Sequence record: SRR31156797_9179
Length of the DNA: 20,000 nucleotides
Direction: 5' to 3' (one strand)
Shown piece after piece: positions 2,843 to 20,000 of this stretch. The position numbers were made by a program, and so were the translations under genes. Under the pieces are notes generated by a model. That model had not been told where the DNA came from and ran no database searches. It saw only the letters and a list, made by a program, of their open reading frames with translations. Positions within the stretch are counted from its first letter, which is position 1. Each line of letters opens with the position of its first letter.

Positions 2843-2955
2843 GCTAAAAAGAAGAAGAATATAACACATACATTGGGGCGTTTAAACAGTTTTTTGATTT
2901 TTTTAACCTATTATAGGATGAAGATTAAATTTTGTCTCAATCTAATATAAAATTG

Positions 2956-3978
2956 ATGAGTGTAACCATACTAGGAATTGAATCATCTTGTGATGATACT
3001 TCGGCATCGGTACTAAAGGACGGAATAATTTATTCCAATATAATTGCGAACCAAGATGTACATATGAATTATGGTGGGGTAGTACCGGAATTGGCTTCGC
3101 GTGCTCACCAACAAAATATCATTCCTGTTGTGCATCAGGCGATGGAAAAAGCTGGTGTAACAGCAGATGAAATTGATGCCGTAGCTTTCACCAGAGGTCC
3201 TGGCTTACTTGGATCTTTAATGGTGGGAACTTCTTTTGCCAAAGGATTTGCTATGTCGAAAAATATACCTTTAATTGAGGTAAACCATTTGCAGGCACAT
3301 ATTCTTGCACATTTTATTGATGATTTGAAAAACACATATGATCATCCTGGATTTCCATTTTTGGCTTTATTGGTATCAGGTGGTAATTCACAAATTATTG
3401 TGGTGAAAGATCATTTAGATATGGAAGTTATTGGGGAAACCATTGACGATGCGGCAGGAGAAGCTTTTGATAAATGTGCTAAAGTAATGGGTCTGCCTTA
3501 TCCAGGAGGACCATTGATTGATAAAAATGCCAAACAAGGTAATCCATTGGCATTTGAATTTAGTCGTCCAAGAATTCAGGGATTAAATTATAGTTTTAGT
3601 GGTTTAAAAACTTCGTTTCTGTATTTTATTCGTGATAAAGTAAAAGAGAATCCAAATTTTGTACAGGAAAATATGAATGATTTGTGTGCATCATTACAAT
3701 ACACAATTGTTGATATTTTAATGAACAAGGTAAAACGTGCTGCAAAAGAGACAGGAATTAAGCAAGTCGCAATTGCTGGTGGAGTTTCAGCTAATTCAGG
3801 ATTACAAAATGCTTTGCACGAGGCAGCTGAAAAACACAAGTGGAAGGTATTTGTTCCTCAATTGGGTTATTCGCTGGATAATGCTGCAATGATTGCGATT
3901 ACAGGATATTTCAAGTATTTAAGAAATGAATTTGTAGGTCAGGATACAGCTCCTTTTGCTCGAATGACCATTAAATAA
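2956..3978 (+). CDS. tsaD: tRNA N6-adenosine threonylcarbamoyltransferase TsaD (Kae1/YgjD family)
   Basis: Motifs ILGIESSCDDT, GGVVPELASRAH, GPGL, metal-binding HLQAH, LVSGG, DDAAGEAFDK, FSGLKT, GGVSAN and DNAAMIA. ATG at 2956 is preferred over TTG at 2932. Confidence 0.97.
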   Translation: MSVTILGIESSCDDTSASVLKDGIIYSNIIANQDVHMNYGGVVPELASRAHQQNIIPVVHQAMEKAGVTADEIDAVAFTRGPGLLGSLMVGTSFAKGFAMSKNIPLIEVNHLQAHILAHFIDDLKNTYDHPGFPFLALLVSGGNSQIIVVKDHLDMEVIGETIDDAAGEAFDKCAKVMGLPYPGGPLIDKNAKQGNPLAFEFSRPRIQGLNYSFSGLKTSFLYFIRDKVKENPNFVQENMNDLCASLQYTIVDILMNKVKRAAKETGIKQVAIAGGVSANSGLQNALHEAAEKHKWKVFVPQLGYSLDNAAMIAITGYFKYLRNEFVGQDTAPFARMTIK

Positions 3979-3986
3979 AAAAATAG

Positions 3987-4017
3987 AAAACGGAAGTCAA
4001 TGAGCTTCCGTTTTTTT
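3987..4017. terminator. Bidirectional intrinsic terminator between convergent tsaD and the 147-aa gene
   Basis: AAAACGGAAG-TCAATGAG-CTTCCGTTTTTTT. An A-tract lies on the left and a T-tract on the right, and the stop codon of the minus-strand gene falls in the T-tract. Confidence 0.85.
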
Positions 4018-4459
4018 ATTCTGTGATGTTTAAATAGTTTTTTAAAATCGTTAATGAATTATCATTCAAATGGGAGAGATCTAATCGAATTACCTCTTTA
4101 TTTTTCATACTGATATCCATATTGTGATCAGAAATAGCGATGTCCTTTATATCTTTAAGATAGACTTTAATCTCTTTCTTTTTCCATCCTGTTTTGTACT
4201 TTAATTTTCTGGAATTAATGATTAAATATTCATTTGGATAAAGAAATTTACATCCCAATAAAAGACCCACAAAATAAATAGCGACCACGATCAATACAAG
4301 AATCAGATAATTACCATGTGGTAAAAAATCAAAATACTTGTTGAATAAATAAAGGAGTATTGCAGAAATTAGAAAAGAGATTCCTAAAGCAAGCTGTTTG
4401 CTTTTTGATACGTTATTGTTGATTTTATGATTCCGTATGTCAAATTCGAATTGAAGCAT
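4016..4459 (-). CDS. Hypothetical membrane protein (two TM helices plus small C-terminal beta-rich, possibly bacterial PH-like, domain)
   Basis: 147-aa ORF with hydrophobic segments LALGISFLISAILLYLF and YLILVLIVVAIYFVGLLLG. It fills the gap between the terminator and the CYTH gene. Confidence 0.7.
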   Translation of the reverse strand: MLQFEFDIRNHKINNNVSKSKQLALGISFLISAILLYLFNKYFDFLPHGNYLILVLIVVAIYFVGLLLGCKFLYPNEYLIINSRKLKYKTGWKKKEIKVYLKDIKDIAISDHNMDISMKNKEVIRLDLSHLNDNSLTILKNYLNITE

Positions 4460-4531: not shown

Positions 4532-5074
4532 TTATTCTTCAATAAATACCTGATTGAAAAGACTATTTTGTTGCAGTAAATCACTGTAAGAGTCAGAAAT
4601 TAAATCTTTAGCATTTATTTCCAATAGCTTGATATAGAAATTGCACTGTTCCTGTAATTTTTCTTTGGCAGTATTTTCTTCAAAATCAATAGCTTCGATT
4701 TCAATAAATTGACCAATTCTAGCAACGGAATCAATATGAAATTTTACATTGTCGATAAAATAGATTTCTCTTTGTTTATCAACTACACACCTGGTTCCCA
4801 TCGATTTTGTAAGAATCTCCTTTAAGTTCGAATCAGGAGAGGTTTTGTATAAACTAACCTTACTCTCTTTCGATCCTTTTTTATTTTCACGAATGTAATG
4901 AATTAGGTTGTTTTCGATATTTCCTTCACGTAGTTTTAATCTTCCTGTTTTCGAATGAAAATAGGTGTCAATTTGATGATCTAAACCTTTATATTCGGCA
5001 TTATTGGCTTTTAAAATTTTGCGGATTTTATCCTGATTTTTACAATATGCTTTTATTTCAACACTAACTGGCAT
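4532..5074 (-). CDS. CYTH-domain protein (class IV adenylate cyclase CyaB-like / triphosphate tunnel metalloenzyme)
   Basis: N-terminal VEIKA (ExExK-like), QIDTYF, RLKLREG, VDKQREIYFIDNVKFHIDSV, GQFIEIE and C-terminal SYSDLL. Confidence 0.88.
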   Translation of the reverse strand: MPVSVEIKAYCKNQDKIRKILKANNAEYKGLDHQIDTYFHSKTGRLKLREGNIENNLIHYIRENKKGSKESKVSLYKTSPDSNLKEILTKSMGTRCVVDKQREIYFIDNVKFHIDSVARIGQFIEIEAIDFEENTAKEKLQEQCNFYIKLLEINAKDLISDSYSDLLQQNSLFNQVFIEE

Positions 5075-5149: not shown

Positions 5150-5716
5150 TTAAATTTGTTTGGCAAGTTCGGCTAATTTTATTCCAATTTCTTCGATATC
5201 TAAAATGAAATTTGGTTTGGAAGCGTCAATAGCTGCTTGTGGCATAATGGAGGCAAGAGCATTTATGGGGTTTTCTACAATCGAAATTCCACCATAATTG
5301 TTAATGGTTTTTAATCCTATAGCGCCATCTTGATTTAGTCCGGTAAGAATAACTCCAATTGCTTTAGTTTTACATGCCCAGGCTGCTGATTCGAACAAAA
5401 CATCTATTGAAGGGCGGGAGTGGTGTACTTTAGGATCGGTAGTAAATGAAATGCTATTGTCGCTTTCAATTAACATGTGATAGTTTGGTGGGGCAAAGTA
5501 AACTGTTCCGTTTTCGATGAATTCTTTTTCTTCTGCTTCTTTAATACATAGCTCACTAATGTTATTTAGATAGGAGATAAAGGAATCGTTATTATTATCG
5601 CCAATATGCAAAACAACAAGTACAGGCAAACAAAAATCTTTGGGTAAGGCTGGTATTATTGATTTTAAAGCCTCTAATCCTCCATATGAAGTTCCTATTA
5701 CCAAAGCTTTTGTCAT
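5150..5716 (-). CDS. cheB: Stand-alone CheB-type protein-glutamate methylesterase (no receiver domain)
   Basis: Catalytic Ser in GTSYGG, His in VVLHI and Asp in LTGLNQDGA, plus YFAPPNYH and RPSIDVLFESAA. At 188 aa it is the catalytic domain only. Its start overlaps the cheR stop (ATGA). Confidence 0.93.
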   Translation of the reverse strand: MTKALVIGTSYGGLEALKSIIPALPKDFCLPVLVVLHIGDNNNDSFISYLNNISELCIKEAEEKEFIENGTVYFAPPNYHMLIESDNSISFTTDPKVHHSRPSIDVLFESAAWACKTKAIGVILTGLNQDGAIGLKTINNYGGISIVENPINALASIMPQAAIDASKPNFILDIEEIGIKLAELAKQI

Positions 5717-6558
5717 CGACTAATTTTCTTTTTAAATATTTTTTGTTTGGAATCAATATCTACAAAATTGTTTTCGAATTGGGTAAACTTAAGAGATTCT
5801 TTTGAACCCAAACATAAATGACCGCTGTGAGTAAGGCTTTCGTGGAAAAGGCCGATGACTTTGTTTTGCAATTCTCGGTTAAAATAAATGAGAACATTCC
5901 GGCAGAGAATAAGATTTACTTCAGCAAAAACATGATCTGTAACCAAATTGTGATCGGCAAATACAACTTTTTTAGAAAGTGCCTGATCGAATTTGATTGA
6001 ACCATATTTTAGAGTATAATAGTTAGACAATTGAGCTTTGCCTCCTGAATTCGAATAGTTACGTTGAAATTTATCTAAATCTTGAGTGTGATAAATACCC
6101 AATTTCGCAATTTCTAATACTTTTCGATTAAAATCGGTAGCATAAATCTGACATCTGTCTAAAATTCCTTCCTCATGTAATAAAATGGCTAATGAGTAAA
6201 CTTCCTCACCAGTAGAACATCCGGCATGCCAAATCTTAATAAATGGATAGGTTTTTAAGCTTGGAACAACATTTTCGCGAAACGACTTGTAAAAATCAGG
6301 ATCGCGAAACATTTCTGTTACGTTTATAGATAAATCCTCAAGTAAGTCGATGAAAAACTCCTTGTCTCGAAGTACTTTTTCCTGCATTTGAGATACAGAA
6401 GTAAAGTTACCAATTGACATTCGGTGCATCAATCTTCTTTTAACATGAGCCTTTGAATAATCCCTAAAATCATAACTGTATTTTTGGAAAATAGCTTCCA
6501 AAAACAAGGGAATTTCAATATCTATATTTTCAATACCAACAGAATTGCTTTGAGTCAT
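5713..6558 (-). CDS. cheR: CheR-type protein-glutamate O-methyltransferase
   Basis: Motifs YDFRDY, SINVTEMFRDP, IKIWHAGCSTGEEVYSLAI, IYATDFN, ILCRNVLIYFN and LCLGSKES. Confidence 0.95.
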   Translation of the reverse strand: MTQSNSVGIENIDIEIPLFLEAIFQKYSYDFRDYSKAHVKRRLMHRMSIGNFTSVSQMQEKVLRDKEFFIDLLEDLSINVTEMFRDPDFYKSFRENVVPSLKTYPFIKIWHAGCSTGEEVYSLAILLHEEGILDRCQIYATDFNRKVLEIAKLGIYHTQDLDKFQRNYSNSGGKAQLSNYYTLKYGSIKFDQALSKKVVFADHNLVTDHVFAEVNLILCRNVLIYFNRELQNKVIGLFHESLTHSGHLCLGSKESLKFTQFENNFVDIDSKQKIFKKKISR

Positions 6559-6563
6559 AATGC

Positions 6564-8156
6564 TTACGCGATACTTTTTGAAATCTGGCTAAATATTTTT
6601 CTTAAAGCTTCTTCTTTAAACGGTTTGCTAATAAAATCATTCATACCTGCATTAATACAGTTTTGCTTATCCTCTACAAAAGCATTTGCCGTTAGTGCAA
6701 TAATAAAAGTTTTATTTATTTCTGGATTTTCATTTTCAAAACTTCTTATTTTTTCAGTTGCACTAATTCCATCCAATACTGGCATTTGCATATCCATAAG
6801 AATTACCTGATAGTTATTTTCTTTATGCATTTCAAAAGCTTCCAATCCATTTTTGGCAACATCGCATTGTAAACCCATATGTCTTAAGGTTAGCATTGCA
6901 ACTTTTTGGTTAATTGGGTTGTCTTCTGCAACTAGTATTGATAATTGTTTTGGAATTTCTACTTTTTCATTGTTAAACATATCTACCTCCTGATCTTTGT
7001 ATCCAAATTTTAGTTCAAACATAAACTCTGATCCTACTTCTGGCTCACTTTCCAAACTTATTCTACCGCCCATTAGGTTGGTTAAGTTTTTCGAAATTGC
7101 CAATCCTAAACCTGTTCCTCCATACTGTCGAGTTGTTGAACTATCGGATTGTGTAAATTCTTTAAATAGTTTTTTTTGTGCTTCCCGAGATATTCCAATT
7201 CCCGTATCCTTTACTGAAAAGAACAAAGATACGTATTGCTTTGTTTTCTCGAGACATTTTACTGATAATTGAACCGAGCCTTTGTGTGTAAATTTTATTG
7301 CATTATTGGCAAGGTTTATAAGTATCTGATTCAACCTAAATGAGTCACCAACTAGGTTTTTCGGAATGTCTTCATCAATATCTATAATAAAATCTATTCC
7401 TTTTTCTTTCGCTTTAAAATTTAATAAATAATAGATTGTATCTAAAAGTTTCTGGAGTTTAAAATCGATGCTTTCAATTTCAATTTGACCAGCCTCAATC
7501 TTTGAATAATCTAAAATATCATTAATTATTTGCAGAAGGTTTTCCCCCGAAGTGGTCATTACTTTTAGCATATCCTTTTGCTCATCGTTCAATTCCGATT
7601 CTATAAGTATTCTAGATAAGCCTAAAATTCCATTCATCGGAGAACGGATTTCGTGTGACATGTTAGCCAAAAACATCGATTTAGCCCTGTTTGCATCTTC
7701 AGCTCTGGCTTTTTCAATTATTAACTCTTCATTTTTCGATTCAAGATATTTTAACAAAGAATCAAGCTCTTTTCTTTGCTGATACAAATCGAGAAATACC
7801 TTTACTTTTCCTTTAAGAATTTCGGGAATAATAGGTTTTGGAATAAAATCAACGGCTCCAGTTTCGATTCCTTTAATGATATGTAAATCGCTTTGATGAA
7901 TAGCAGATACAAAAATTACAGGAAGAAGCTTAGTTTTTTTCCTTTGACGCATAAATTCAAGCGTTTCATAGCCATCCATTCCAGGCATTTGAACATCTAG
8001 GATTGCCATTGCAAATTCTTCTTTAAGAGTATGTTTTAAAGCTTCCTCTCCCGATGAGGCTCTGACAAATTCAACGTCAAAATCACTCAGAACTCGCTCT
8101 AGACTAACAAGGTTCTCTAACTTATCATCAACTATTAGTATTTTTTCCTTTTTCAT
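6564..8156 (-). CDS. Cytoplasmic hybrid histidine kinase (REC-HisKA-HATPase-REC)
   Basis: N-terminal REC (ILIVDD...ILDVQMP...KP), H-box FLANMSHEIRSPMNG, N-box QILINLANNAIKFT, G1 DTGIG, G2 GGTGLGL and C-terminal REC (VAEDN...LMDMQMP...SKP). No TM segment. Confidence 0.95.
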   Translation of the reverse strand: MKKEKILIVDDKLENLVSLERVLSDFDVEFVRASSGEEALKHTLKEEFAMAILDVQMPGMDGYETLEFMRQRKKTKLLPVIFVSAIHQSDLHIIKGIETGAVDFIPKPIIPEILKGKVKVFLDLYQQRKELDSLLKYLESKNEELIIEKARAEDANRAKSMFLANMSHEIRSPMNGILGLSRILIESELNDEQKDMLKVMTTSGENLLQIINDILDYSKIEAGQIEIESIDFKLQKLLDTIYYLLNFKAKEKGIDFIIDIDEDIPKNLVGDSFRLNQILINLANNAIKFTHKGSVQLSVKCLEKTKQYVSLFFSVKDTGIGISREAQKKLFKEFTQSDSSTTRQYGGTGLGLAISKNLTNLMGGRISLESEPEVGSEFMFELKFGYKDQEVDMFNNEKVEIPKQLSILVAEDNPINQKVAMLTLRHMGLQCDVAKNGLEAFEMHKENNYQVILMDMQMPVLDGISATEKIRSFENENPEINKTFIIALTANAFVEDKQNCINAGMNDFISKPFKEEALRKIFSQISKSIA

Positions 8157-8176
8157 TTGTTATAATATCTTTTGAG

Positions 8177-11100
8177 CTAGTTGTAAAGCCAAATTTTTAA
8201 CATTGAGAACAGTTTATTCTCATCAATAGGTTTGGATAAATAATCGTTTGCTCCTGAAGAAATTGCTTTCTGATAATCATCTTTCATTGCTTTTGCAGTA
8301 AGACAAATTATTGGAACATCCTGTATTTCCGGAGTTTGTCGAATAACGGTCATGGCTTCATATCCATCCATTTCCGGCATCATTATATCCATTAAAACTA
8401 AATCTACATTTGCATTGTTCTTTAATACGTCAATGGCTATTTTTCCATTTTCAGCTTCAAGAACTTCCATATCCTTTTCTTCAAGAATCTTGCCTAAAGC
8501 AAAAATATTTCTGATTTCATCATCAACAACCAACACTTTTTTACCTTTAAAAATGGAGTCGTCAATTTCTGTAACTTTTACCTTAGGGTTTTCTGGTGTT
8601 TTTGTTGCCACCTGATGTAAGAATAAACTTACTTCATCCATTAAACGTTCATCTGATTTTAATCCTTTAAGAATAATTGAATTAGTGTATTTGCTCAGTT
8701 CTCTGTGTTCTTCACGAGATAAATCTTTCCCCGTATAAATAATAGTATTAGGAACTTTAATATTTGCTTCGGATAATTTTTTTAGCAATTCATTTCCTGA
8801 GATATCTGGCAGACCGAGATCAAGAATTATACAGTCGTAATTTTTCTTTGAAATCAGGTCAAAAGCTTCTTCACCAGTTGTAGATTCATCAATCTGAACA
8901 TTGGTTGGAGTCAAAATACTTTTTATCAATTGCCTAGTAGTATCATTGTCTTCAATTACCAGAATCTTTTTCGATTCGGTGAACAATTGAGTTTTCATTT
9001 TATTAATTGCCTGAGAAACATTTGTAGCATTCACTGTAGGCAAATCATTCAGGTCTCTTTCAATAAATCCTTCAACAGGATTTACAATATGCATTGGTAA
9101 TTTAGAGGCATAAGAATTTAAACGTAATGGGTTTAAAACGTCTTCTCCTTTTTCAAGGATAAGTTCCATTCCAATAATAATTGCCGAAGGCTGGTGTGCT
9201 TCAATTAATAAGATAGCATCGGCAACATTCGAAGCAACCAAAGCATGGAAACTACTTTCATGTATTTGATAGTACAGAGAAGTTGCTTCATCACGTTTAG
9301 GATGAATTAAAACAACGGTTGAACCATTGTGTGGTATGTCTCTATCATCATCAATAAAAATTGGTAATACTACTGGTTTGTTTTCGGTTTCTAGAATTTC
9401 GTTCTCATTCTTAAGCGTAACAGATTTAAGATTTTGAATTGTTGTTTTATTCTGCTTCTCAGGAATAAATAAGGTAAAACTAGATCCTTTACCTACTTCG
9501 CTTTCCAGGTGAATTTCGCCACCTAACATTCTAGCCAATTCTTTCGAGATTGAAAGCCCTAAACCGGTTCCACCATACTGTCTTGAGGTACTTCCATCAG
9601 CTTGTTGAAAAGCTTCGAAAATGGCTTCCTTTTTCTCATCAGGAATACCAACTCCGGTATCTGTTACTGTAATTGAATAGGTATCTGAGGTTTTTAGATC
9701 ACTTCTCCATAATTTCGAACTATCAACTGCTTTCTTCATCGAAACGGTTATTGCTCCTTTTGAAGTGAATTTTAAGGCATTTGATAATAGGTTTTTAATG
9801 ATTTGATTTAATCTTAATGGATCTGTTTCAATATTATTTGCGAAATCATCTGAGATATCTACATGGAAATCCAAGTTTTTCTTATCTGCCTGATGTTTGA
9901 AATCCATTAAAATTTCACTTTTGATATCATCAGGTTGAACCGATTCGAATTCTATATTCATTTTACCTGCTTCAATTTTCGACAGGTCTAAAATTTCATT
10001 AATTAGTTGGAGTAGATCTTTTCCACTCTTATTTATGATTTGAGCTGATTCAATATCTTCATCAGTAAGATTTCCATTCTTATTCTTCACCAAAATCCCG
10101 GATAGAATAAGTAAACTATTTAATGGTGTCCTTAGTTCGTGAGACATGTTTGCCAAAAAGTCGGATTTGTATTGACTTGCTTGTTCCAATTCTCTGGCTT
10201 TAACCTCAATCTTGTCGTGAGCTACAGATAATCCTTTATTTTTTTGTTCTATTTCTTCTTTCTGAATTTCAAGTTGATTGGTTCTTTCCTCTAATTCTTC
10301 ATTGGCAACTCGTAACTCTTCTTGTTGAACTTGTAGTTTTTTCTCATTTTCAGTTAAAATGCTTGTTTGTTCTGCAAGTTCCTCATTGGCTACTCTAAGT
10401 TCTTCTTGTTGAACTTGTAGTTCACTGGCTTGTTCTTGTGTTGTTTTTAATAGATTTTCTAAACGAACACGAGCCAAAGTAGAGGCAATTTTAACTGTAA
10501 TACTTTCACGTACTGCTTTTACAAAATCGACAATCGATTCAGAAAATATTTTTATTGAGGCAATTTCTAATACGCCCCATAAAGCATCGTTGTATACTAA
10601 GGGAACCAAAAGAACATTCTTTGGCATTATTTCACCTGTTCCCGAAAACACGTTAAAATATTCCTTAGGCAGATCTTTCAAATGCTTCAGTTTTTTAGTT
10701 TGAGCAACTTGTCCTACTAAACCGTGTCCTACACGAATATTTTTGTATTGATTTTTGTCAGGAATACCAAATGATGCAGCTAAGGATAATGTCTCTTGTT
10801 CTTCGTGGTAGACATACAATGTACCTAATTCTGCTGATAAAAATTCAGACATAAATCCCAAAGTTCTTGAAGCTACTTCTTCTAGCTCATGATCGCCCTG
10901 AAGTTCTTCATTTAATTGATTTACACCAGATCTGAACCAATGTGTTTCATCATTTGTTGCTTTTGAATCTTTTAATGTTTTTACCATCTGATTCAAAGAA
11001 ATGGACAGTTCATCTTCTTTCGATTTAGGTGTAAGATTAATACTTAAATCACCGTTGGCAACCATTTTTGTATAATCAACAACACTTTGAAAATCGTTTT

Positions 11101-11929
11101 GAATAATTTGGAAAGATTGAGCCAATGAGCCGATTTCATCTTTGGTATGAATACTTAAAGGAGTGTGATAATTTCCTTTTGCCATTAGCTTAAAATTACC
11201 AACCATTTCTTTTATTGGAACAGTAATTGATTTTGAGATATATTTGGCAAGTAATAATATTACAACACAAAGTATTATTGCTATAATTGCCATAGCCCAG
11301 ACCAATGCACTATTAAATTTGTGAGATAAGCTATTAACTTCATCACTAATTCCGGTATAATGCTTTTGTATTTCGTGCAATTCAGATTTAATTTTTTCAA
11401 TATCAATGGTCGACTTTCCACTTTGCAATTCATTTTTGATCAACTCTGCTGCATCCAATGCTTTTTGAGAATGTCCTCTGGTACTTTCAATTTCGCCACT
11501 TTTAAGACTATTTAATATTCTTAAACGGGAAACCATTAATTCGGCATTCTTTAATTCGTGATTGTAAATTTCAGGAAAGCCATTAAAAAGATATGTAGCT
11601 ATTTCTTTATTTGTTTTGATGGGATAAAATCCTTGAATCTTTAGAAGATCCTTTACCAATTGGTTAGAACGATTGATATAATAAGCAGAAGATTCTCTGT
11701 ATTTATCCTCTTTGGTTATCTGAAAAGAATAGAAATTGTCAACACCTTGTTGTAATAAACTTTCATGAATACGTAGCCCATTAATCATGATGCTAACAGT
11801 TCGGCTGGTTTTGAAAAAGAAGCTGGAGGTCAGACTCAAAATTAAAATACTGATAAGCGTTAATACTGTTAATAACAGTAATTTAGATTTTAACTTCCAA
11901 TCTTTGAACATTTTCATTGTAAAATGCAT
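8177..11929 (-). CDS. Membrane hybrid sensor histidine kinase: TM-periplasmic helical domain-TM-2xHAMP-GAF-coiled coil-HisKA-HATPase-pseudoREC-REC-REC
   Basis: Two TM segments and tandem HAMP motifs (PIKEM...AKGNY...DEIGSLAQSF; VANGDLS...DELSISLNQM). GAF motifs GTLYVY, GLVGQVA, LLVPL and GVLEIAS. H-box FLANMSHELRTPLN, N-box NLLSNALKFT, DTGVG and GGTGLGL. Two intact RECs (ILDLGLP, LMDIMMP). The true start may be one of the next ATGs (MKMFKDW). Confidence 0.95.
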   Translation of the reverse strand: MHFTMKMFKDWKLKSKLLLLTVLTLISILILSLTSSFFFKTSRTVSIMINGLRIHESLLQQGVDNFYSFQITKEDKYRESSAYYINRSNQLVKDLLKIQGFYPIKTNKEIATYLFNGFPEIYNHELKNAELMVSRLRILNSLKSGEIESTRGHSQKALDAAELIKNELQSGKSTIDIEKIKSELHEIQKHYTGISDEVNSLSHKFNSALVWAMAIIAIILCVVILLLAKYISKSITVPIKEMVGNFKLMAKGNYHTPLSIHTKDEIGSLAQSFQIIQNDFQSVVDYTKMVANGDLSINLTPKSKEDELSISLNQMVKTLKDSKATNDETHWFRSGVNQLNEELQGDHELEEVASRTLGFMSEFLSAELGTLYVYHEEQETLSLAASFGIPDKNQYKNIRVGHGLVGQVAQTKKLKHLKDLPKEYFNVFSGTGEIMPKNVLLVPLVYNDALWGVLEIASIKIFSESIVDFVKAVRESITVKIASTLARVRLENLLKTTQEQASELQVQQEELRVANEELAEQTSILTENEKKLQVQQEELRVANEELEERTNQLEIQKEEIEQKNKGLSVAHDKIEVKARELEQASQYKSDFLANMSHELRTPLNSLLILSGILVKNKNGNLTDEDIESAQIINKSGKDLLQLINEILDLSKIEAGKMNIEFESVQPDDIKSEILMDFKHQADKKNLDFHVDISDDFANNIETDPLRLNQIIKNLLSNALKFTSKGAITVSMKKAVDSSKLWRSDLKTSDTYSITVTDTGVGIPDEKKEAIFEAFQQADGSTSRQYGGTGLGLSISKELARMLGGEIHLESEVGKGSSFTLFIPEKQNKTTIQNLKSVTLKNENEILETENKPVVLPIFIDDDRDIPHNGSTVVLIHPKRDEATSLYYQIHESSFHALVASNVADAILLIEAHQPSAIIIGMELILEKGEDVLNPLRLNSYASKLPMHIVNPVEGFIERDLNDLPTVNATNVSQAINKMKTQLFTESKKILVIEDNDTTRQLIKSILTPTNVQIDESTTGEEAFDLISKKNYDCIILDLGLPDISGNELLKKLSEANIKVPNTIIYTGKDLSREEHRELSKYTNSIILKGLKSDERLMDEVSLFLHQVATKTPENPKVKVTEIDDSIFKGKKVLVVDDEIRNIFALGKILEEKDMEVLEAENGKIAIDVLKNNANVDLVLMDIMMPEMDGYEAMTVIRQTPEIQDVPIICLTAKAMKDDYQKAISSGANDYLSKPIDENKLFSMLKIWLYN
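10292..10420 (-). repeat. Intragenic direct repeat, 2 x 45 bp at 84-bp period, encoding LQVQQEELRVANEEL twice
   Basis: Copies at 10376-10420 and 10292-10336. All 15 residues are identical, and the 8 nucleotide differences (in 6 codons) are all synonymous. Confidence 0.95.
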
Positions 11930-12246: not shown

Positions 12247-12771
12247 ATGAAATATTTAAGCTTATTGGCTATGTGCCTGATGTTGCTTTCATGTAATCAA
12301 AAATCCAAGCAAAAAGATTCAACTCCTAAGCAAGCAGAAATAAAGCAAATTGTTCAAACTATCGATCAGGTTATGCAAGCTGCTGAACAGAATGTTGGTA
12401 AACAGGTTCATTTTAAAGGTCTTGTTAATCATGTTTGTGCGCACTCTGGTAAACGATGCATTTTAAAAAACACATCTGGTGATTTATCTATTCGTGTTGA
12501 AGCTACAGGGAATTTAGAAGGTTTCAATAAGGAAATTGCAGGTAATGATTTAATTGTAACGGGAACTTTAAGAGAAAAAAGGTTGGATACGGCTTACATT
12601 AATGAATGGGAAAAAGATATCAAATCTAAACATGATGCCGAGGAAGGTGGAGAACACTGTAGTTCTGAAATGGCTAACATTAAGGAAATGCGTGATTGGA
12701 TGAAAGAGAATAACAAAGATTATTATGCTATTTATTTTGTAGACGGAACCAGTTATGAAGTTGTGGAGTAA
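12247..12771 (+). CDS. Lipoprotein with probable OB-fold and His/Cys motif (resembles DUF4920-type proteins)
   Basis: Signal peptide II ending LLSC (Cys16). OB-fold-like pattern GKQVHFKGLV...LIVTGTL. Motifs HVCAHSGKRC and EHC. Confidence 0.75.
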   Translation: MKYLSLLAMCLMLLSCNQKSKQKDSTPKQAEIKQIVQTIDQVMQAAEQNVGKQVHFKGLVNHVCAHSGKRCILKNTSGDLSIRVEATGNLEGFNKEIAGNDLIVTGTLREKRLDTAYINEWEKDIKSKHDAEEGGEHCSSEMANIKEMRDWMKENNKDYYAIYFVDGTSYEVVE

Positions 12772-13300
12772 GAAGGGAGCAAGAAAATGGCTTAGATTAA
12801 TTCATCGAGATTTAGGTTTTTTCTTTGTAGGAATTACAATTATTTATTCTGTTTCGGGCATTCTTTTAAATCATAAGAAAAATGGAGAGGATCCAGCATA
12901 TAAAACGGAATACAAATCTTATAATTTAGAAGCAAGTCTTAGTCCTGATCAATTAACTTCATATTGGAGTGAGGAATTGGATGCTTATCCTTTAAATAGA
13001 ATTCTTCCCAATGGAGATACATACGATATTTATCTTAAGGGAGGTTTGGGAAAGTATAATCCTGTAAATGGGAAGCTTACTTTTGAAGTGTATGAGAAAA
13101 AGGCTTGGGCATATTTTGTAAATAAGTTGCATTACAATAGTAAAAAAGGCTGGACACTTATGGCGGATATTTTTGCAATTGCAATGTTGATATTTGCTTT
13201 ATCGGGTATGTTTATGGTACCTGGTAAAAAAGGATTAAATGGAAGAGGAAAATGGTTGATTGCCATAGGGATAATTATTCCATTTTTATTTTTCCTTTAA
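12755..13300 (+). CDS. PepSY-associated TM helix protein
   Basis: Motifs WLRLIHRDLGFF...YSVSGILLNH, NKLHYN and W...DIFAIAMLIFALSG, with three TM helices. Overlaps the upstream gene by 17 bp. Confidence 0.88.
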   Translation: MKLWSKKGARKWLRLIHRDLGFFFVGITIIYSVSGILLNHKKNGEDPAYKTEYKSYNLEASLSPDQLTSYWSEELDAYPLNRILPNGDTYDIYLKGGLGKYNPVNGKLTFEVYEKKAWAYFVNKLHYNSKKGWTLMADIFAIAMLIFALSGMFMVPGKKGLNGRGKWLIAIGIIIPFLFFL

Positions 13301-13481: not shown

Positions 13482-14525
13482 ATGAATAGAATTTTAATCA
13501 GTTTATTGCTAATACTTTTTCATTTTAGCTCAATGAGTCAGAATAAGGAGTTAAAAAAATTGTACTCTAAAGGAAAATACGATCAGGTAATAAGTAAAGC
13601 GCAATCTTTATTATCAGATAATACTGGTGATCCTGACTTAAATTCGATTATTGGAAGAGCTTATACAGCATCTAAACAATTTAATATGGCTGTTCCGTAT
13701 CTTGAAAAATCCATTCTTTCAGAATCGGTATCAGAAGAAACAAAGGCTTTGAGTAAAGCTTACTTAGCCAAGTGTTATTTTATAAATGGAGAGAAGAAAA
13801 AGGCAGTAACTTATTTAAAAGAGTGCCAGAATGGCAGAGAATCAAAAGAAGCTGTTAGATATGCTCAAAAATATTTAAGCCTGTTTCAAACAAGCATGTA
13901 TTATAAGACTTGGGAAGTGGTTGAAACCAAAAATATTAGATATCACTTTCAGGATAAGAAGAAGGTTGAGGATGTAGATAAATACATGAATAATTTAGAA
14001 GCGAATTACCAAAGAATAGTGAATTTGTTTACAATTGTTCCTACTAAAAAAATAGATGTATTTGTTTGGAGTGATAAGCATGAAGCTTACCGAAAATTTG
14101 ATAAGTCTCTTAGTTTTTCAAATCCAGATTTGTGTATTGTAAATGTGTATAATAACCAGAAAGATGATTATGAATTTAACCATATGCTTTCTAATATGGT
14201 TATACGACCAAAGTTTAAGAGCATGCTGATTGATAAAGGTTTGGCTGTGTATTTTGATACCATGGATAAAAACCTGTTTGCTATTGCTCGAAAAAGAATA
14301 CCAAAAGAGGATTTTTCTTTATTGGAACTTTGGGAAGATCCGACTAGTTATGAACGAGATTTAAGTAAGCCTGTTGGTGCAGCTTTTATAGAGTTTTTAA
14401 TTAATAAAGGTGGGAAAGCAAAGCTAAAAGAGTTTTTAAAGGTACAAACCATTAAGAATGCAGAAAAGGTTTATCCCGATTTTGATAAACTTGTTAAAAC
14501 ATTTGAAGCAATGTTGCTGAGATAA
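13482..14525 (+). CDS. Exported TPR protein with C-terminal peptidase MA-like (gluzincin-like) domain, probably inactive
   Basis: Signal peptide MNRILISLLLILFHFSSMS-Q. TPR-like helices (YSKGKYDQVI, IGRAY...QFNMAVPYLEKS, LAKCYFINGEKKKAVTYL). C-terminal ETKNIRYHF...KIDVFVW...YEFNH...DKGLAVYF...GAAFIEFLI pattern. Confidence 0.7.
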   Translation: MNRILISLLLILFHFSSMSQNKELKKLYSKGKYDQVISKAQSLLSDNTGDPDLNSIIGRAYTASKQFNMAVPYLEKSILSESVSEETKALSKAYLAKCYFINGEKKKAVTYLKECQNGRESKEAVRYAQKYLSLFQTSMYYKTWEVVETKNIRYHFQDKKKVEDVDKYMNNLEANYQRIVNLFTIVPTKKIDVFVWSDKHEAYRKFDKSLSFSNPDLCIVNVYNNQKDDYEFNHMLSNMVIRPKFKSMLIDKGLAVYFDTMDKNLFAIARKRIPKEDFSLLELWEDPTSYERDLSKPVGAAFIEFLINKGGKAKLKEFLKVQTIKNAEKVYPDFDKLVKTFEAMLLR

Positions 14526-14644: not shown

Positions 14645-16990
14645 CTATTCATATTTTAAACTTTTAATTGGGTTTTGAGTTGCTGACCTCCAACTTTGGT
14701 AACTTACAGTGCAAATTGCAATTGCAAACACCATAAAAGCTACGGCAGCGAACACCCACCAAGGCATATCTATATGGAATGCATATTTGTTTAAATAAAA
14801 ATCCATAATATACCAGGAAATAGGCCAGGCTATAAGATTGGAAAGAACTACCCATTTTGTGAATTCTTTAGAAAAAAGTGCAATAAGGTTTGTAACCGTT
14901 GCACCCAAAACTTTTCGAACACCAACTTCTTTTGTTTTTTCCTCAGCCATAAACGAAGCCAATCCAAATAACCCTAGGCAGGATATAATGATTGTTAAAA
15001 TGGTAAAATATTTTAAAATTGCCAATGTACTGTCTTCTTCTCGGTACTGAGAAGCATATCTGTCCTCCAAAAAATTGATTTCCGTGGGAAAGCCAGGATT
15101 GTATTTTTTGCAAATTTTTTCGATATGCGCCAGAGCACGAGTATTGGTATTTTCCCCAATTTTAATAGATAGATATCTGTACCTTTCAAAAGGAATAATA
15201 GCCATAGGTTCGATTTTTCTGTGTAAACCTTTAAAATTGAAATCTTTTACAACCCCAATAATTCTTTTGTTGCTTCCCCAATGTACTATTGGTTTATCGA
15301 TAACCGAATTGTTATCAATTGTTTTTGCAAAGGTTTCGTTAATAATTAATGTTAGTGAGTCAGCGGCTAGATTTTCTTTATTAAAAAAACGTCCTTCAAC
15401 TAGCTCTGTTTTGTATACATCCAGAAAGTCAGAATCTGTCAATAACATATGAACAAGTACATCTTTGGTTGCTTCATCATTGTTCCACATGTACCCACCT
15501 CCATTGCTATTTAGAGCAATGGGTAAATCAGATCCAAAAGTTGTATGCAAAATACTAGGATCTCGAAGTAATTCCTCCTTAATACTATTTCGGCTCTCAT
15601 TCATTTTGCCATTTAATCCTACAAACACAATATTCGATTTATCAACACCTGTAGATGCTGTTTTCATGTATTTTGTCTGTAAGGTAATGGTAAGGGTACA
15701 AATAAGTAGTATTACCGTCAGCGTAAATTGCATTACAACTAATATTTTTCTAAATATTGCTGCTTTTTTACCGGAACTCACCGAACCCTTTAAAACTTGG
15801 ATTGTATTGTATGATGTAAGGTAGAAAGCAGGATAAGCACCTGCAAATAACCCAGTAAAAATTACAACAAAAAGCATGATACTAATGGATTGCCAATCGG
15901 TATAATACAACTCCAAACGTTGTCCAAGAATTGAGTTGAATTCCGGAATAAAAAGTCGAACCAAAATGATCGCGAAATTTATAGCAATAAAAGAGAGCAA
16001 TAATGATTCGAATAAAAATTGACGAACCAATTGAGCTTTGGAAGATCCAATAGCTTTTTTAAGCCCAATTTCTTTAGCTCTTTTTGCTGCTCTTGCAGTT
16101 GATAGATTCATGAAATTAAAGCATGCAATAAGCAAAATAATTAATGCTATTATTAAGAATATTCGGATACTTTTTAGGTTGGTTTCTTCTCCTTCAAGAT
16201 TGTATAAATGAGTATCACCAATTGGAAATAAAGAAAGCGTTTCAGTTGACTCTTCATCAACATTATCTACATAGAATGTTCTCAATTTTTCACTTACGAT
16301 AGCAGGATCTGCATTTACATCTAACTCTACAAATCCAGAATAAGTATGATTTCCCCAATGTTGCCAACCATTATAAGTTTTCTTTTTAAACTCATAGGGT
16401 ACGATAAAATCAAATTCAAAAGAGGAATTCGAAGGTAGATTTTTAAGTACTCCTCGAATGGTTAAGTTGTGGGTATTATCTAATTCGATAACGGATCCAA
16501 TAGGATCTTGATCTCCAAAATATTTTTCAGACATCTTTTCACTAATAACTATGGAGTACGGATCTTCGAAAACATCATTCGGAGAACCACTTATTAATGG
16601 AAAACTAAACATTTTGAAAAAGTCAGCATCTGCATGAAAAACCCTCTCATAGTTCTTAATACTGTTAATTACCAAAAGATTATTATCGCCCCAAGGGTTG
16701 TAGTTGGTTGCATGAACTACTTCTGGAACTTTATCTTTTATCAAATCAATTAATTTTCCAGGAATATTTGGCCAACCATATTCTTGTCCACTGTATGTTT
16801 GCCAGTTTACAATTTGAAATAATTGCTTTTCCTTCTTATGAAACTTATCGTAGCTTAATTCATGATTTACCCACAGTAAGAGTAGTATTGTACAAGCCAT
16901 ACCAATGGCAAGTCCTGATATATTTATAAAACTGTATCCTTTGTTTCGGATTAGGTTTCGGTAGGCAATTTTTAAGTTATTTAGAAACAT
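14645..16990 (-). CDS. ABC transporter permease, MacB/FtsX type (duplicated MacB_PCD-FtsX architecture)
   Basis: Motifs KIAYRNLIRNKGYSFINISGLAIG, IACFNFMNLSTARAAKRAKEIGLKK, FRKILVVMQF, ISCLGLFGLASF...TKEVGVRKVLGA and C-terminal NPIKSLKYE. Confidence 0.95.
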   Translation of the reverse strand: MFLNNLKIAYRNLIRNKGYSFINISGLAIGMACTILLLLWVNHELSYDKFHKKEKQLFQIVNWQTYSGQEYGWPNIPGKLIDLIKDKVPEVVHATNYNPWGDNNLLVINSIKNYERVFHADADFFKMFSFPLISGSPNDVFEDPYSIVISEKMSEKYFGDQDPIGSVIELDNTHNLTIRGVLKNLPSNSSFEFDFIVPYEFKKKTYNGWQHWGNHTYSGFVELDVNADPAIVSEKLRTFYVDNVDEESTETLSLFPIGDTHLYNLEGEETNLKSIRIFLIIALIILLIACFNFMNLSTARAAKRAKEIGLKKAIGSSKAQLVRQFLFESLLLSFIAINFAIILVRLFIPEFNSILGQRLELYYTDWQSISIMLFVVIFTGLFAGAYPAFYLTSYNTIQVLKGSVSSGKKAAIFRKILVVMQFTLTVILLICTLTITLQTKYMKTASTGVDKSNIVFVGLNGKMNESRNSIKEELLRDPSILHTTFGSDLPIALNSNGGGYMWNNDEATKDVLVHMLLTDSDFLDVYKTELVEGRFFNKENLAADSLTLIINETFAKTIDNNSVIDKPIVHWGSNKRIIGVVKDFNFKGLHRKIEPMAIIPFERYRYLSIKIGENTNTRALAHIEKICKKYNPGFPTEINFLEDRYASQYREEDSTLAILKYFTILTIIISCLGLFGLASFMAEEKTKEVGVRKVLGATVTNLIALFSKEFTKWVVLSNLIAWPISWYIMDFYLNKYAFHIDMPWWVFAAVAFMVFAIAICTVSYQSWRSATQNPIKSLKYE

Positions 16991-17018
16991 AGTTGGCTAA
17001 TATTTTTAAAGGATCAAT

Positions 17019-19367
17019 TTATTCATACTTTAGGCTAACCACTGGATTTTTAGTAGCTACTTTTAAACTTTGATATGCTACTGTAATTGTTGAAATTATA
17101 AGTAACAAGGTAAACACTGCAAGAAACAACCAGAAAGGAAAGTCAATTCTAAAAGGATAACTGTGGAACCATTCCTCCATAGCAAAATAGGTAATTGGCC
17201 AGGAAATTAAAGAAGCAACAAGAATCCATTTGCTAAAATCTTTGCTAAAAATCAGAATCAACTGACGCATTGAAGCACCTAGTACTTTGCGCACACCAAT
17301 TTCCTTTGTTCGTTCTTCGGCGTTAAACGATGCCAAGCCAAAAAGTCCTAGACAAGAAATAATAATAGCCAAAATTGAGGCATAAAGTAAGGTGCTAATA
17401 GTTGCTCTTTCGTTTTGGTACATTTTATCGTAATGATCATCCAGGAAATTGTAAATTAATGGGAAATCAGGATTGTATTTCGAGCATATTTTTTCAATTT
17501 CCTGAACTGCTTTCGATGCATTTCCATCAACGTATCGTACAAACAAGAAATCAGGATCGGAACATAGTCGAAGCATAAATGGTTGCAACTTTCTTGTATT
17601 TGGTGTACAATGATAATCTTTCACCACACCAATAATTCTTACATCTTTATTGTTTCCTGTATGAATCATTTTATCTATTACCGATTCATCAGATATCATT
17701 TCAGCAAATTTCTCATTAATGATCACACAACTTGAATCTGCGGCAGGATTATCGATATTAAAAGGTCTTCCTGAATGAAATTTAACTTTAAAAACATCGA
17801 AAAAATTTGCATCAACATTAGGGTAAGTAATCAGAGGTTTAAATTCGGGATCTTTACCTTCCCAATCTTCGCCCCAACCATTGCTAAAAACCCTGTAGGG
17901 TATGTGTGAACCATATGAAACATTATCAACAAGAGGGTTACTCATGAGCTCACTTTTTATAGATTCGATCTTGCTACGCATTTGCTGATTAATATTCACA
18001 GAAATTACGTTGTCTTTGTTTAAACCAACATCCATATTGGCGAGATACCTTGTTTGCAGTACAATGGTTAATGTACATATTAGTAATGATGAGGCTAATA
18101 CAAATTGTGTAACCACTAAAATTTTTCTAAATCTATTGCCTCCTTTTCCGCCTGAGAAAGTTCCTTTTAATACTGCAATAGGGTTGAAGGAAGATAAGTA
18201 AAATGCAGGATAGGCACCAGCAATAATTCCTGTGAATATGGTTACTCCCAAAATAATCAACCAGAATTCCAGAGATGAGTAATCTAAAATTAAATGTCTG
18301 CTCATTAAAGAATTGAATTGAGGCAAGAACAAGTGAGATAAAATAATAGCAAAATTTGCTGCAACTACGGTTATAAGTAATGATTCTCCAATAAACTGCT
18401 TGATTAATTGTGGATAGGTGGCTCCAATTGCTTTTTTTAAACCAATTTCTTTAGCTCTTTTTGCTGCTCTGGCAGTAGAAAGGTTCATGAAATTGAAACA
18501 GGCAATAATTAAAATGAAAATGGCAATCATAAAAAACATCTTTACCTGAGTTATTTTGGTTGGTCTGCCATCGATATAATACAAATGCCTCTTGATTAGC
18601 GGAAATAAAAAGACAGATTTCTCACTTTCCTTATCTACATGATCAATGTAGAACTGATCTAATTTTTTATTTAAAACATCGATATCAGTTCCCTTTGCAA
18701 TTTTCGTATAGCCAAAATAGTTATGAGAACCCCAATGATCTGAATAAGGGTTTTGTTTTTTCAACATTTCGAATGGAGTTAAAAAGTCGAATTGAATTGA
18801 AGAGTTACTTGGTATATCCTTTGTAACAGCTGTAATTATTAAAGGTTGCCTATTATCTACATTAACAATTTTACCAATTGGATTTTCATCTCCAAATATT
18901 CTTTTGGCTGCTTTTTCTGATAACACCAATGAATTGATATCATTCAAGCATGTTTCCATATTTCCATACAATAAAGGGAAATTAAAGATTTGGAAAAAGT
19001 TTGGGTCAGCGAATTTAATATTTTCATATTGTTTTTTGCCTTTGTATTCAACCAGCAGCCTTTCTCCCCAGGCATTGTAATGAGTTGCATATTCAATTTC
19101 GGGATACTTTTCTTTTAGAACATCAATTAGTGGTGTTGGTAAATTAGGCATTGCATTTTTCTTACCATTCCAAGATTGATAGTTACAGACTTGGTAAATT
19201 TTATCAGTATCCTTATGAAAATTGTCGTAGCTCAATTCATGATTTACCCATAGCAATAATAAAATGGTACAAGCCATTCCAATAGCAAGACCCGATATGT
19301 TAATAAAACTGTATCCTTTATTTCTGATAAGGTTACGGTAGGCAATTTTAAGGTTATTTAGAAACAT
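17019..19367 (-). CDS. ABC transporter permease, MacB/FtsX type (tandem paralogue)
   Basis: Same motifs as the neighbouring permease, 782 aa, ending NPVVSLKYE. Confidence 0.95.
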   Translation of the reverse strand: MFLNNLKIAYRNLIRNKGYSFINISGLAIGMACTILLLLWVNHELSYDNFHKDTDKIYQVCNYQSWNGKKNAMPNLPTPLIDVLKEKYPEIEYATHYNAWGERLLVEYKGKKQYENIKFADPNFFQIFNFPLLYGNMETCLNDINSLVLSEKAAKRIFGDENPIGKIVNVDNRQPLIITAVTKDIPSNSSIQFDFLTPFEMLKKQNPYSDHWGSHNYFGYTKIAKGTDIDVLNKKLDQFYIDHVDKESEKSVFLFPLIKRHLYYIDGRPTKITQVKMFFMIAIFILIIACFNFMNLSTARAAKRAKEIGLKKAIGATYPQLIKQFIGESLLITVVAANFAIILSHLFLPQFNSLMSRHLILDYSSLEFWLIILGVTIFTGIIAGAYPAFYLSSFNPIAVLKGTFSGGKGGNRFRKILVVTQFVLASSLLICTLTIVLQTRYLANMDVGLNKDNVISVNINQQMRSKIESIKSELMSNPLVDNVSYGSHIPYRVFSNGWGEDWEGKDPEFKPLITYPNVDANFFDVFKVKFHSGRPFNIDNPAADSSCVIINEKFAEMISDESVIDKMIHTGNNKDVRIIGVVKDYHCTPNTRKLQPFMLRLCSDPDFLFVRYVDGNASKAVQEIEKICSKYNPDFPLIYNFLDDHYDKMYQNERATISTLLYASILAIIISCLGLFGLASFNAEERTKEIGVRKVLGASMRQLILIFSKDFSKWILVASLISWPITYFAMEEWFHSYPFRIDFPFWLFLAVFTLLLIISTITVAYQSLKVATKNPVVSLKYE

Positions 19368-19378
19368 GCTGGTTGATA

Positions 19379-20000
19379 TTATAGTAATTCAGATTTTTCG
19401 CTTATTGTATGTACTTTCTTTTTGTGATTTTCACTCACAATGTGCCCGTCGAAAAGTTGAATGGTACGATTAGCACTTTCTGCATCGGAGCTTGAGTGTG
19501 TAACCATTACAATTGTAGTTCCTTCTTTATTTAATTCACTTAAAAGTTCCATAACTTCTCGACCATTAGCTGAGTCTAGATTTCCTGTAGGCTCATCGGC
19601 AAGAATTAAATTTGGATTTGAAACCACTGCTCGAGCGATTGCAACTCTTTGTTGCTGTCCGCCTGATAGTTGTTGCGGAAAATGTTTACTTCTATGCAGA
19701 ATTTGTACTCTTTCCAGAACTTTGTTTACTCGTCTTTTGCGTTCCGATGCTGGTATTTTCTGATAAACCAATGGCAACTCAACATTTTCGAAAACACTTA
19801 ATTCATCAATTAGGTTAAAACTCTGAAATACGAATCCAATATTCGATTTTCTCAATTGTGTTCTTTGTCTTTCAGAATAATTAGCTACTTCATCATTAAT
19901 AAATTGAAATTTACCATTGCTTGGATTGTCCAATAAACCAATAATATTTAGAAGAGTAGATTTTCCACATCCCGAAGGTCCCATAATGGCTACAAATTCT
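19379..20000 (-). CDS. ABC transporter ATP-binding protein, MacB/LolD/FtsE type (5' end beyond the right edge)
   Basis: Walker A GPSGCGKS, IGFVFQSFNL, signature LSGGQQQRVAIARA, Walker B ILADEPTGNLD and H-loop VTH. The frame stays open to the edge (EFVAIMGPSG), so the ATG at 19984 is internal. Confidence 0.96.
   Translation of the reverse strand, partial: EFVAIMGPSGCGKSTLLNIIGLLDNPSNGKFQFINDEVANYSERQRTQLRKSNIGFVFQSFNLIDELSVFENVELPLVYQKIPASERKRRVNKVLERVQILHRSKHFPQQLSGGQQQRVAIARAVVSNPNLILADEPTGNLDSANGREVMELLSELNKEGTTIVMVTHSSSDAESANRTIQLFDGHIVSENHKKKVHTISEKSELL

Follow-up and report, generated by a model that had tools for sequence, protein, structure and literature searches.

The 20,000-nucleotide stretch of DNA filed as SRR31156797_9179, which will be referred to as the window, carries four genes arranged in tandem on the minus strand that encode, in this order, a membrane-bound hybrid histidine kinase (HK1), a soluble hybrid histidine kinase (HK2), a methyltransferase of the CheR type, and a methylesterase of the CheB type. 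The spacing between them is 20 bp, then 5 bp, and finally a 4-bp overlap. We consider it probable that this locus, which comes from Marinifilum (Bacteroidota), belongs to the RsbK/RsbM-CfcA family, whose hybrid kinases have a helix that is modified by a dedicated CheR-type methyltransferase, an interpretation that is supported because of the homology to the experimentally characterized RsbK/RsbM system. A preliminary description of the window had listed the same four co-oriented genes with the same spacing, in exact agreement with the coordinates of the open reading frames (ORFs), and had stated that the window holds no methyl-accepting chemotaxis protein (MCP), CheA, CheW, or CheY. The latter statement is borne out by a Pfam search of the 14 ORFs of at least 80 amino acids (aa) in the window, which returned no match to MCPsignal, CheW, CheA-specific domains, or a single-domain receiver.

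From Pfam and hydropathy, HK1 is composed of a transmembrane (TM) segment, a periplasmic domain, a second TM segment, HAMP, GAF, a signaling helix (S-helix), HisKA, HATPase, a pseudo-receiver, and two receiver domains (REC), and its coordinates are collected in Table 1 together with those of the other features. Over aa 480–600 it shares 99% identity with a protein of Marinifilum sp. N1E240. Another relative, P0136, is 89% identical over the same residues and is listed as a TRINITY contig from a eukaryotic transcriptome; its presence in a eukaryotic data set is presumably due to bacterial contamination.

Table 1. Coordinates of the operon, of the domains of HK1, and of the genes downstream of the operon.
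Feature	Positions	Strand	Remarks
HK1	8177-11929	minus	1250 aa; ORF list
HK1 periplasmic sensor region	11312-11818	minus	aa 38-206, between TM segments
HK1 HAMP region	10940-11239	minus	aa 231-330, two HAMP-like stretches; Pfam
HK1 GAF	10505-10891	minus	aa 347-475; Pfam
HK1 S-helix/coiled coil	10169-10441	minus	aa 497-587
HK1 kinase core	9455-10168	minus	HisKA aa 588-655, HATPase_c aa 703-825; Pfam
HK1 phospho-acceptor His597	10139-10141	minus	H-box columns invariant in alignment A2
HK1 degenerate receiver-like domain 1	9005-9322	minus	aa ~870-975; alignment columns
HK1 two intact receivers	8198-8977	minus	aa 985-1104 (Asp1037), aa 1132-1244 (Asp1181); Pfam
HK2	6564-8156	minus	530 aa; ORF list
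CheR	5713-6558	minus	281 aa; ORF list
CheB	5150-5716	minus	188 aa; ORF list
CYTH-domain gene	4532-5074	minus	75 bp after CheB; weak class IV adenylate cyclase match, below cut-off
Small EbsA-like gene	4016-4459	minus	72 bp after CYTH gene
tsaD	2932-3978	plus	convergent with small minus-strand gene

The central element of HK1 is the helix of about 100 residues between GAF and HisKA, which contains Glu-Glu-Leu triplets at aa 509–511, 516–518, 537–539, and 544–546. The second glutamates of these triplets, namely E510, E517, E538, and E545, are, from the sequence, the candidate methyl-accepting residues of the kinase. The 95 residues before the kinase core were aligned, set on the H-box and without gaps, for the window and for 69 of the related loci described in the next section (numbered with an L). 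The register of the helix to the phospho-accepting histidine is ungapped in all 70 sequences, with leucine at −86, −79, −72, −65, −58, −51, and −44 from this histidine in 81–100% of them, and Glu-Glu is the commonest pair right before the leucine at five of these seven columns. When the in-phase [EQ][EQ]L triplets are counted over the seven heptads, a score of at least 3 is reached by 66 of the 70 GAF/coil kinases and by none of the 3236 other ORFs or the 82 other kinases from the same loci, the 82 kinases being the fair control because the GAF/coil label itself rests partly on a match to the window’s own coil. An S-helix is a coiled coil of about 40 residues that joins a sensor to an output domain and bears a central ERT-like signature; HK1 reads E-E-R-T at 547–550, where the consensus of the family is EE[QK]x. 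The mapped methylation sites of RsbK, which we take to be E439 and E446, lie at −66 and −59 from its His505, and these two positions are occupied by the second Glu of consecutive Glu-Glu-Leu triplets in seven out of seven RsbK-like kinases from Bacillota; in HK1, the residue at −59 is E538. Homology of the helix to the methylation helices of MCPs was also considered and rejected, as phmmer searches with two MCP-like ORFs from the flanks of related loci matched the kinases only in or around HAMP.

The receiver portion of HK1 begins with a domain that obtains no REC score in Pfam, and in which Gly920 fills the acceptor Asp column and the acidic Glu-Asp-Asp is replaced by His-Pro-Lys. The acceptor Asp is kept in the first receiver of 30 of the 45 aligned kinases, and Gly920 is common to 14 of the 45, all of them from Marinilabiliales. 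After the last receiver, HK1 terminates (8180–8215) with ...LKIWLYN, in which the Trp is Trp1247 and which is the tail of the whole family: all 71 listed GAF/coil histidine kinases (loci L001–L079) display, a few residues from the C-terminus, the motif ...SL[LM]RVW[LM]x with an invariant Trp. Among 18 other receiver-ended hybrid kinases of the same loci, an RVW-type C-terminal motif occurs once, in L025, whose kinase belongs to the GAF/coil class and is truncated by the end of the contig. This Trp motif could form the surface through which the inhibitory receiver docks, or else a tether for CheR or CheB.

At the other end of HK1, two hydrophobic segments (aa 15–37 and 207–229 by hydropathy) enclose a stretch of about 170 aa for which Pfam gave no family even at E ≤ 1, where only noise appeared. 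Comparison with the periplasmic domains of 24 relatives, with L060 left out, returned an hhalign probability of 0.2%; five of the seven relatives in this set that were tested with Pfam have CHASE3, and the idea that HK1 carries a divergent CHASE3 was supported neither by Pfam nor by hhalign. Only L060, a locus in a metagenome-assembled genome of Bacteroidales, encodes a domain related to the periplasmic domain of HK1.

As for the remaining three proteins, Pfam identifies HK2 as a soluble REC-HisKA-HATPase_c-REC kinase, and the locus maps indicate that it is the counterpart of the REC-HK gene (HK, histidine kinase) located after CheB in most related loci. The third gene product combines CheR_N and CheR, the type of the S-adenosylmethionine (SAM)-dependent protein-glutamate methyltransferases, and its best relative of solved structure is a chain of entry 5ftw (110.9 bits). 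Its identity ranges from 64 to 99% across relatives from Marinilabiliales (88% to the CheR of M. flexuosum), and the invariant or nearly invariant columns across 60 members of the subfamily include R41, R42, R85, G113, G117, and Y225; the pair Arg41/Arg42 in the N-terminal domain would suit the recognition of an acidic helix. CheB consists of CheB_methylest alone, and its Ser10, His37, and Asp130, presumably the catalytic triad, align with the Ser of GxSxGG and with the His and Asp columns of the solved chains 3sft and 1chd. The preliminary description had called both enzymes intact-looking, which holds for their catalytic columns; CheB, on the other hand, is the catalytic domain only, without the N-terminal receiver. 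In NCBIfam, no family-specific model was found for the four proteins, with the kinase matches far below the cut-off and CheR and CheB matching generic models only.

Conservation of the module across phyla

The relatives of CheR amount to 1932 (clusters at 50% identity) at E 1e-30 or better. Alignment A1, made of 60 of them, was scanned against contigs from one genome per species, and from at least 598 confirmed stretches the best 80 were kept with 10-kb flanks; ORFs of at least 90 aa in these 80 loci were then classified by phmmer with the window’s own domains as queries. The loci include Pseudomonadota, Bacteroidota, Gemmatimonadota, Cyanobacteria, Bacillota, and Planctomycetota, along with Acidobacteriota, Deinococcus, Verrucomicrobiota, Bdellovibrionota, Myxococcota, and Desulfobacterota.

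A gene for a GAF-coil-HK kinase with one to three receivers lies on the same strand and no more than 1.2 kb upstream of CheR in 65 of the 80 loci. The locus maps reveal that 7 of the other 15 are cut by the end of the contig (L005, L014, L021, L025, L043, L062, and L080), and remnants of receivers are found upstream in six of these seven, while L043 starts at CheR itself. The kinase follows CheB in L011 and is 2 kb away in L039, L019 and L034 have a GAF-HK without a coil match, L003, L022, and L031 deviate from the common arrangement, and L060 has the order HK1-HK2-CheR-CheB, that is, the order of the window. The preliminary description had likewise noted similar clusters in other phyla.

CheB is present in 64 of the 80 loci and has an N-terminal receiver in none of these 64, with the CheB of L027 being fused to a REC-HK. 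By tblastn, no CheB was detected in the remaining 16 loci, ten of which are from Bacillota. A REC-HK gene occurs within 3 kb after CheR in 44 loci. Pfam analysis of 29 further ORFs disclosed other products of the gene adjoining CheB, namely REC-GGDEF in L037, L071, L072, and L080, REC-PAS-GGDEF-EAL in L043, REC-PAS-PilZ in L001 and L002, and a REC-HWE kinase in L015. In four of the ten Bacillota loci (L016, L046, L064, and L075), a REC-SpoIIE phosphatase gene lies near the module.

Some loci have additional genes. Single-domain receivers are encoded directly before CheB in L001 (10851–11333) and L002 (10819–11301), both of Alcanivorax type, and resemble a split CheB receiver. Others, at about 9600–9990, directly precede CheR in L042, L061, L063, L067, L069, L074, L076, and L078, which belong to Flavobacteriia, Sphingobacteriia, and Cytophagia. 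L004 encodes a 399-aa PAS_10 protein 8 kb from the module (19068–20267, minus strand), PAS_10 being typical of CheB-CheR-PAS fusion kinases.

The 120 best of the longer CheR relatives were surveyed for fusions; the majority are CheR-CheB or CheB-CheR fusions, and 9 of the 120 join CheR to receivers or to a kinase. P0417 (1416 aa) is a full GAF-coil-HK-REC-REC-REC-CheR protein in which the heptad motif is present, and P0404, P0406, P0410, and P0427 are receiver-CheR pieces; some of the CheR fusions may be gene-calling artifacts of overlapping genes.

Proposed mechanism and rival explanations

For the Marinifilum locus, we propose that HK1 senses through its periplasmic domain and its cytoplasmic GAF, and that the rigid helix of about 100 residues with its Glu-Glu-Leu heptads connects GAF to His597. 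CheR would methylate the second Glu of the triplets, with E510, E517, E538, and E545 as candidates, and by analogy with RsbK methylation would help the last receiver (Asp1181) to dock on the helix and the kinase core, thereby keeping the kinase off. The receiver-less CheB would strip the methyl groups and make the setting reversible, HK2 would act as a second-tier kinase fed by HK1, and the final output regulator would be encoded outside the window. In print, methylation of an S-helix by a CheR-type enzyme and its inhibitory effect are on record for the homologue RsbK only, as far as the excerpts of the reports go; the sites, the role of CheB, the transfer from HK1 to HK2, and the direction of the effect given here for Marinifilum are drawn by extension from it. 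A prediction of the complex between CheR, SAM, and a pair of HK1 fragments (aa 485–660), carried out in three runs without controls, gave scores of 0.00, 0.43, and 0.01, which speak neither for nor against the interaction.

That the sensor kinase itself is the substrate of CheR was already the proposal of the preliminary description, and the homologous RsbK/RsbM pair together with the conserved Glu-Glu-Leu helix of HK1 speaks in its favor. Its accompanying remark, to the effect that clusters of this kind have no known methylation substrate, is outdated, considering that RsbM methylates RsbK (PMC4574943), and since this methylation is already in print, a claim of novelty for the kinase as substrate fails.

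Several observations weigh against this interpretation. Membership of the family was judged from architecture, gene context, and the Bacillota relatives (from Bacillus, Paenibacillus, and allied genomes), with the B. cereus RsbK and RsbM sequences outside the comparison. HK2 stands between HK1 and CheR and not after CheB, the periplasmic domain of HK1 is not detectably CHASE3, unlike those of RsbK and CfcA, and the first receiver-like domain is degenerate. At −66, the position of one of the two methylation sites taken for RsbK, HK1 has Lys531. Pfam revealed no RsbY-like or CfcR-like output regulator among the ORFs of the window. Lastly, Gln occupies the Glu-Glu positions in 27 of 385 cases (7.0%) in the loci with CheB versus 7 of 105 (6.7%) in those without, and is thus no commoner where CheB is present, which leaves no sequence trace of a CheB-type deamidation.

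Three rival explanations were considered. If CheR and CheB were ordinary chemotaxis enzymes acting on MCPs encoded elsewhere, with the kinase neighborhood being incidental, then their catalytic columns, which are those of the canonical enzymes, would be accounted for; the absence of MCPs is a result for the window only, and chemoreceptors do exist in some Bacteroidetes according to excerpts of PMC7390727. This explanation is nevertheless improbable given that the order kinase-CheR(-CheB) is conserved across phyla in the 65 loci mentioned above, that the receiver needed to couple CheB to CheA is missing, and that kinase-CheR fusions occur; moreover, the P. putida homologues are reported, in the excerpts of PMC4951495 and citing other work, to have no role in chemotaxis. 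The flanks point the same way. MCP-like ORFs, sought by an MCP hairpin-tip motif, lie within 10 kb in 2 of the 80 loci (L064 and L009), on the opposite strand and several kb away, so that neither is adjacent to the module, and phmmer searches with both of them detected no further MCP in the 80 loci. Pfam matched MCPsignal, CheW, or CheA in none of the 118 flank ORFs of at least 180 aa from 14 of the 80 loci, and the flanks of these 14 are unrelated from one locus to the next.

The enzymes may instead act within the module but on another target, such as HK2, a receiver, or the NEEL segment that precedes GAF, and leave the Glu-Glu-Leu helix for signal transmission only. A single NEEL heptad precedes the H-box of HK2, HK1 reads NQLNEELQ at about aa 338–345, and a long helix would stay conserved anyway as a rigid linker. 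We regard this alternative as unlikely, for the heptad tract sets the GAF kinase next to CheR apart from the 82 other kinases, and the published substrate region of RsbK is the S-helix (PMC4574943, excerpts); besides, HK2-type genes are missing from 33 of the 80 loci when sought on the same strand with a start no more than 3 kb after CheR, a count that the position of HK2 in the window would itself escape. It is highly improbable that CheR and CheB are inactive relics, or scaffolds only, without turnover of methyl groups. The RsbK system of B. cereus works without CheB in the excerpts of PMC4574943, so that CheB is dispensable in some lineages; against this stand the full-length ORFs of both enzymes, the Ser/His/Asp columns kept in CheB, and a CheR whose invariant columns are retained throughout the Marinilabiliales range of identity given above.

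Methylation of the S-helix of HK1 by the CheR of its operon thus remains our preferred interpretation, and a more extended version of it, which we offer tentatively and rate somewhat below an even chance as a whole, concerns the module outside Bacillota. There, it may constitute a complete chemotaxis-style adaptation loop built on a histidine kinase, in which CheR would keep adding methyl groups to several heptad-spaced S-helix glutamates and the receiver-less CheB would keep removing them, the numerous receivers of the module would control the activity of CheB in trans, and the kinase would adapt to stimuli that persist and retain a short-term memory. In the case of the window, this would take place in a host that may have no chemotaxis machinery and with a sensor of unknown type. 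In the literature, we found no demonstration of adaptation or memory through reversible methylation by a paired CheB.

These findings imply that CheR and CheB genes in genomes or bins are not to be read as evidence of chemotaxis, as a two-component kinase is the target in a large family of CheR-linked kinases. Judging from the excerpts of the published work, CheR-type methylation of a sensor-kinase helix is a widespread and already described module, of which the Marinifilum copy is a real but not a new example. To what is in print the survey adds a helix register of 100 residues that stays ungapped, with its Glu-Glu-Leu heptads, from phylum to phylum, the dedicated receiver-less CheB in most members outside Bacillota, and the invariant Trp motif at the end of the last receiver; heptads, CheB, and Trp motif supply concrete sites to mutate.

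Boundaries and surroundings of the operon

The preliminary description regarded both flanks of the operon as visible, which is correct for the upstream side, where a 317-bp gap separates HK1 from a divergent gene at 12247, and is not as clear for the downstream side, where the CYTH-domain gene and the small EbsA-like gene follow CheB without an intervening terminator. A hairpin with a 13-bp stem and T runs on both strands occurs at about 3985–4016, between tsaD and the small minus-strand gene, and is likely a bidirectional terminator. In the terminator scan it is the sole terminator-like hairpin on the strand of the operon (4014–3987), and since none precedes it, the transcript may exceed the four genes. 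The CYTH-domain gene and the small gene were also considered as core parts of the module and ruled out, for none of the 80 related loci contains a relative of either gene.

Scans of the whole window returned 33 promoters versus 36.4 expected from shuffles, hence no excess, and 5 terminators versus 3.8 expected, with no Rfam or tRNA match; its G+C content is about 30–36%. Divergent from the operon, a 174-aa ORF without a family overlaps a PepSY_TM-like gene (181 aa) by 17 bp at 12247–13300 and is followed by a TPR gene (13482–14525), likewise divergent. On the minus strand, 14645–19984 is occupied by two tandem MacB/FtsX-type permease genes (781 and 782 aa) behind an ABC ATPase gene. Close relatives of these permeases are encoded in L042 (Chryseosolibacter) about 6 kb from the module and on the strand opposite to it.

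Comparison with known systems

With canonical chemotaxis adaptation, the module shares the CheR and CheB folds and their catalytic columns, as well as a putative substrate in the form of an extended acidic coiled coil whose Glu pairs recur every seven residues; in MCPs, it is the second Glu of the pair that is modified. It differs in that the window has no MCP, CheA, or CheW, that CheB has no receiver, and that the helix of the kinase is not homologous to the methylation helices of MCPs: in the kinase a Leu comes after the Glu pair, whereas the MCP consensus is Glu-Glu-x-x-Ala-Ser/Thr.

A closer parallel is provided by Bacillus cereus, where, in the excerpts of PMC4574943, the S-helix of the hybrid kinase RsbK is the target of methylation by RsbM, an enzyme of the CheR type, with repression of sigma-B as the result; the methylation is restated in PMC12848376 and PMC10950880. 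RsbK is there described as CHASE3-HAMP-GAF-S-helix-HK-CA-REC, with His505 and Asp827; its C-terminal receiver is inhibitory, RsbM strengthens the contact between receiver and S-helix, RsbM acts without a cognate methylesterase, and 127 RsbK-like sensor kinases are counted in 10 phyla (PMC4574943). By their sequences, the Bacillota loci of our survey fit the RsbK layout, with no CheB in any of the ten and with one receiver and a His at 502–534 in each of seven kinases (L018, L034, L055, L064, L070, L075, and L079), of which that of L070 is CHASE3-HAMP-GAF and that of L055 has the four-helix-bundle sensor 4HB_MCP_1. The RsbK-like Bacillota kinases have, like HK1, Glu-Glu-Leu heptads before the H-box and a ...VWL[YST] tail. 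HK1 resembles the published RsbK further in being a membrane hybrid kinase with HAMP-GAF-S-helix-HisKA-HATPase and a C-terminal receiver, and CheR belongs to its operon, at a distance of 5 bp from HK2 and 1.6 kb from HK1. Unlike the RsbK system as far as it is described there, the window has a dedicated receiver-less CheB; it also has three receiver-type domains in place of one, a second kinase, HK2, a periplasmic domain that is not detectably CHASE3, and no REC-PP2C output gene.

The preliminary description had pointed to a CfcA locus of Pseudomonas putida with CheR and CheB genes, and this proved correct: in the cfcABCDE cluster, the kinase CfcA is encoded by the first gene and cfcB/cfcC form a CheR/CheB pair for which a role in chemotaxis is excluded (PMC4951495, excerpts). 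The output regulator CfcR is a diguanylate cyclase encoded elsewhere, and the role of the CheR/CheB pair is not tested in the excerpts of the two cfc papers (PMC4951495, PMC6849547). Our Pseudomonas loci L007, L008, and L010 match this published arrangement, with a GAF hybrid kinase bearing three receivers, CheR, a receiver-less CheB, and a REC-HK, and the window resembles it insofar as no output regulator is encoded beside the module. The kinase of L007 carries CHASE3, which the sensor of HK1 does not, and the REC-HK of the cfc-type loci comes after CheB, whereas HK2 of the window precedes CheR. Finally, the Sphingomonas loci L041, L044, and L051 consist of CHASE3-GAF-coil-HK with three receivers, CheR, CheB, and a REC-HK. 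This layout fits a first-tier kinase that feeds a REC-HK, the relation proposed for HK1 and HK2, and KipF of the two-tiered KipF/PakF pathway of Sphingomonas melonis (PMC10950880) may be the GAF-coil kinase of these loci.

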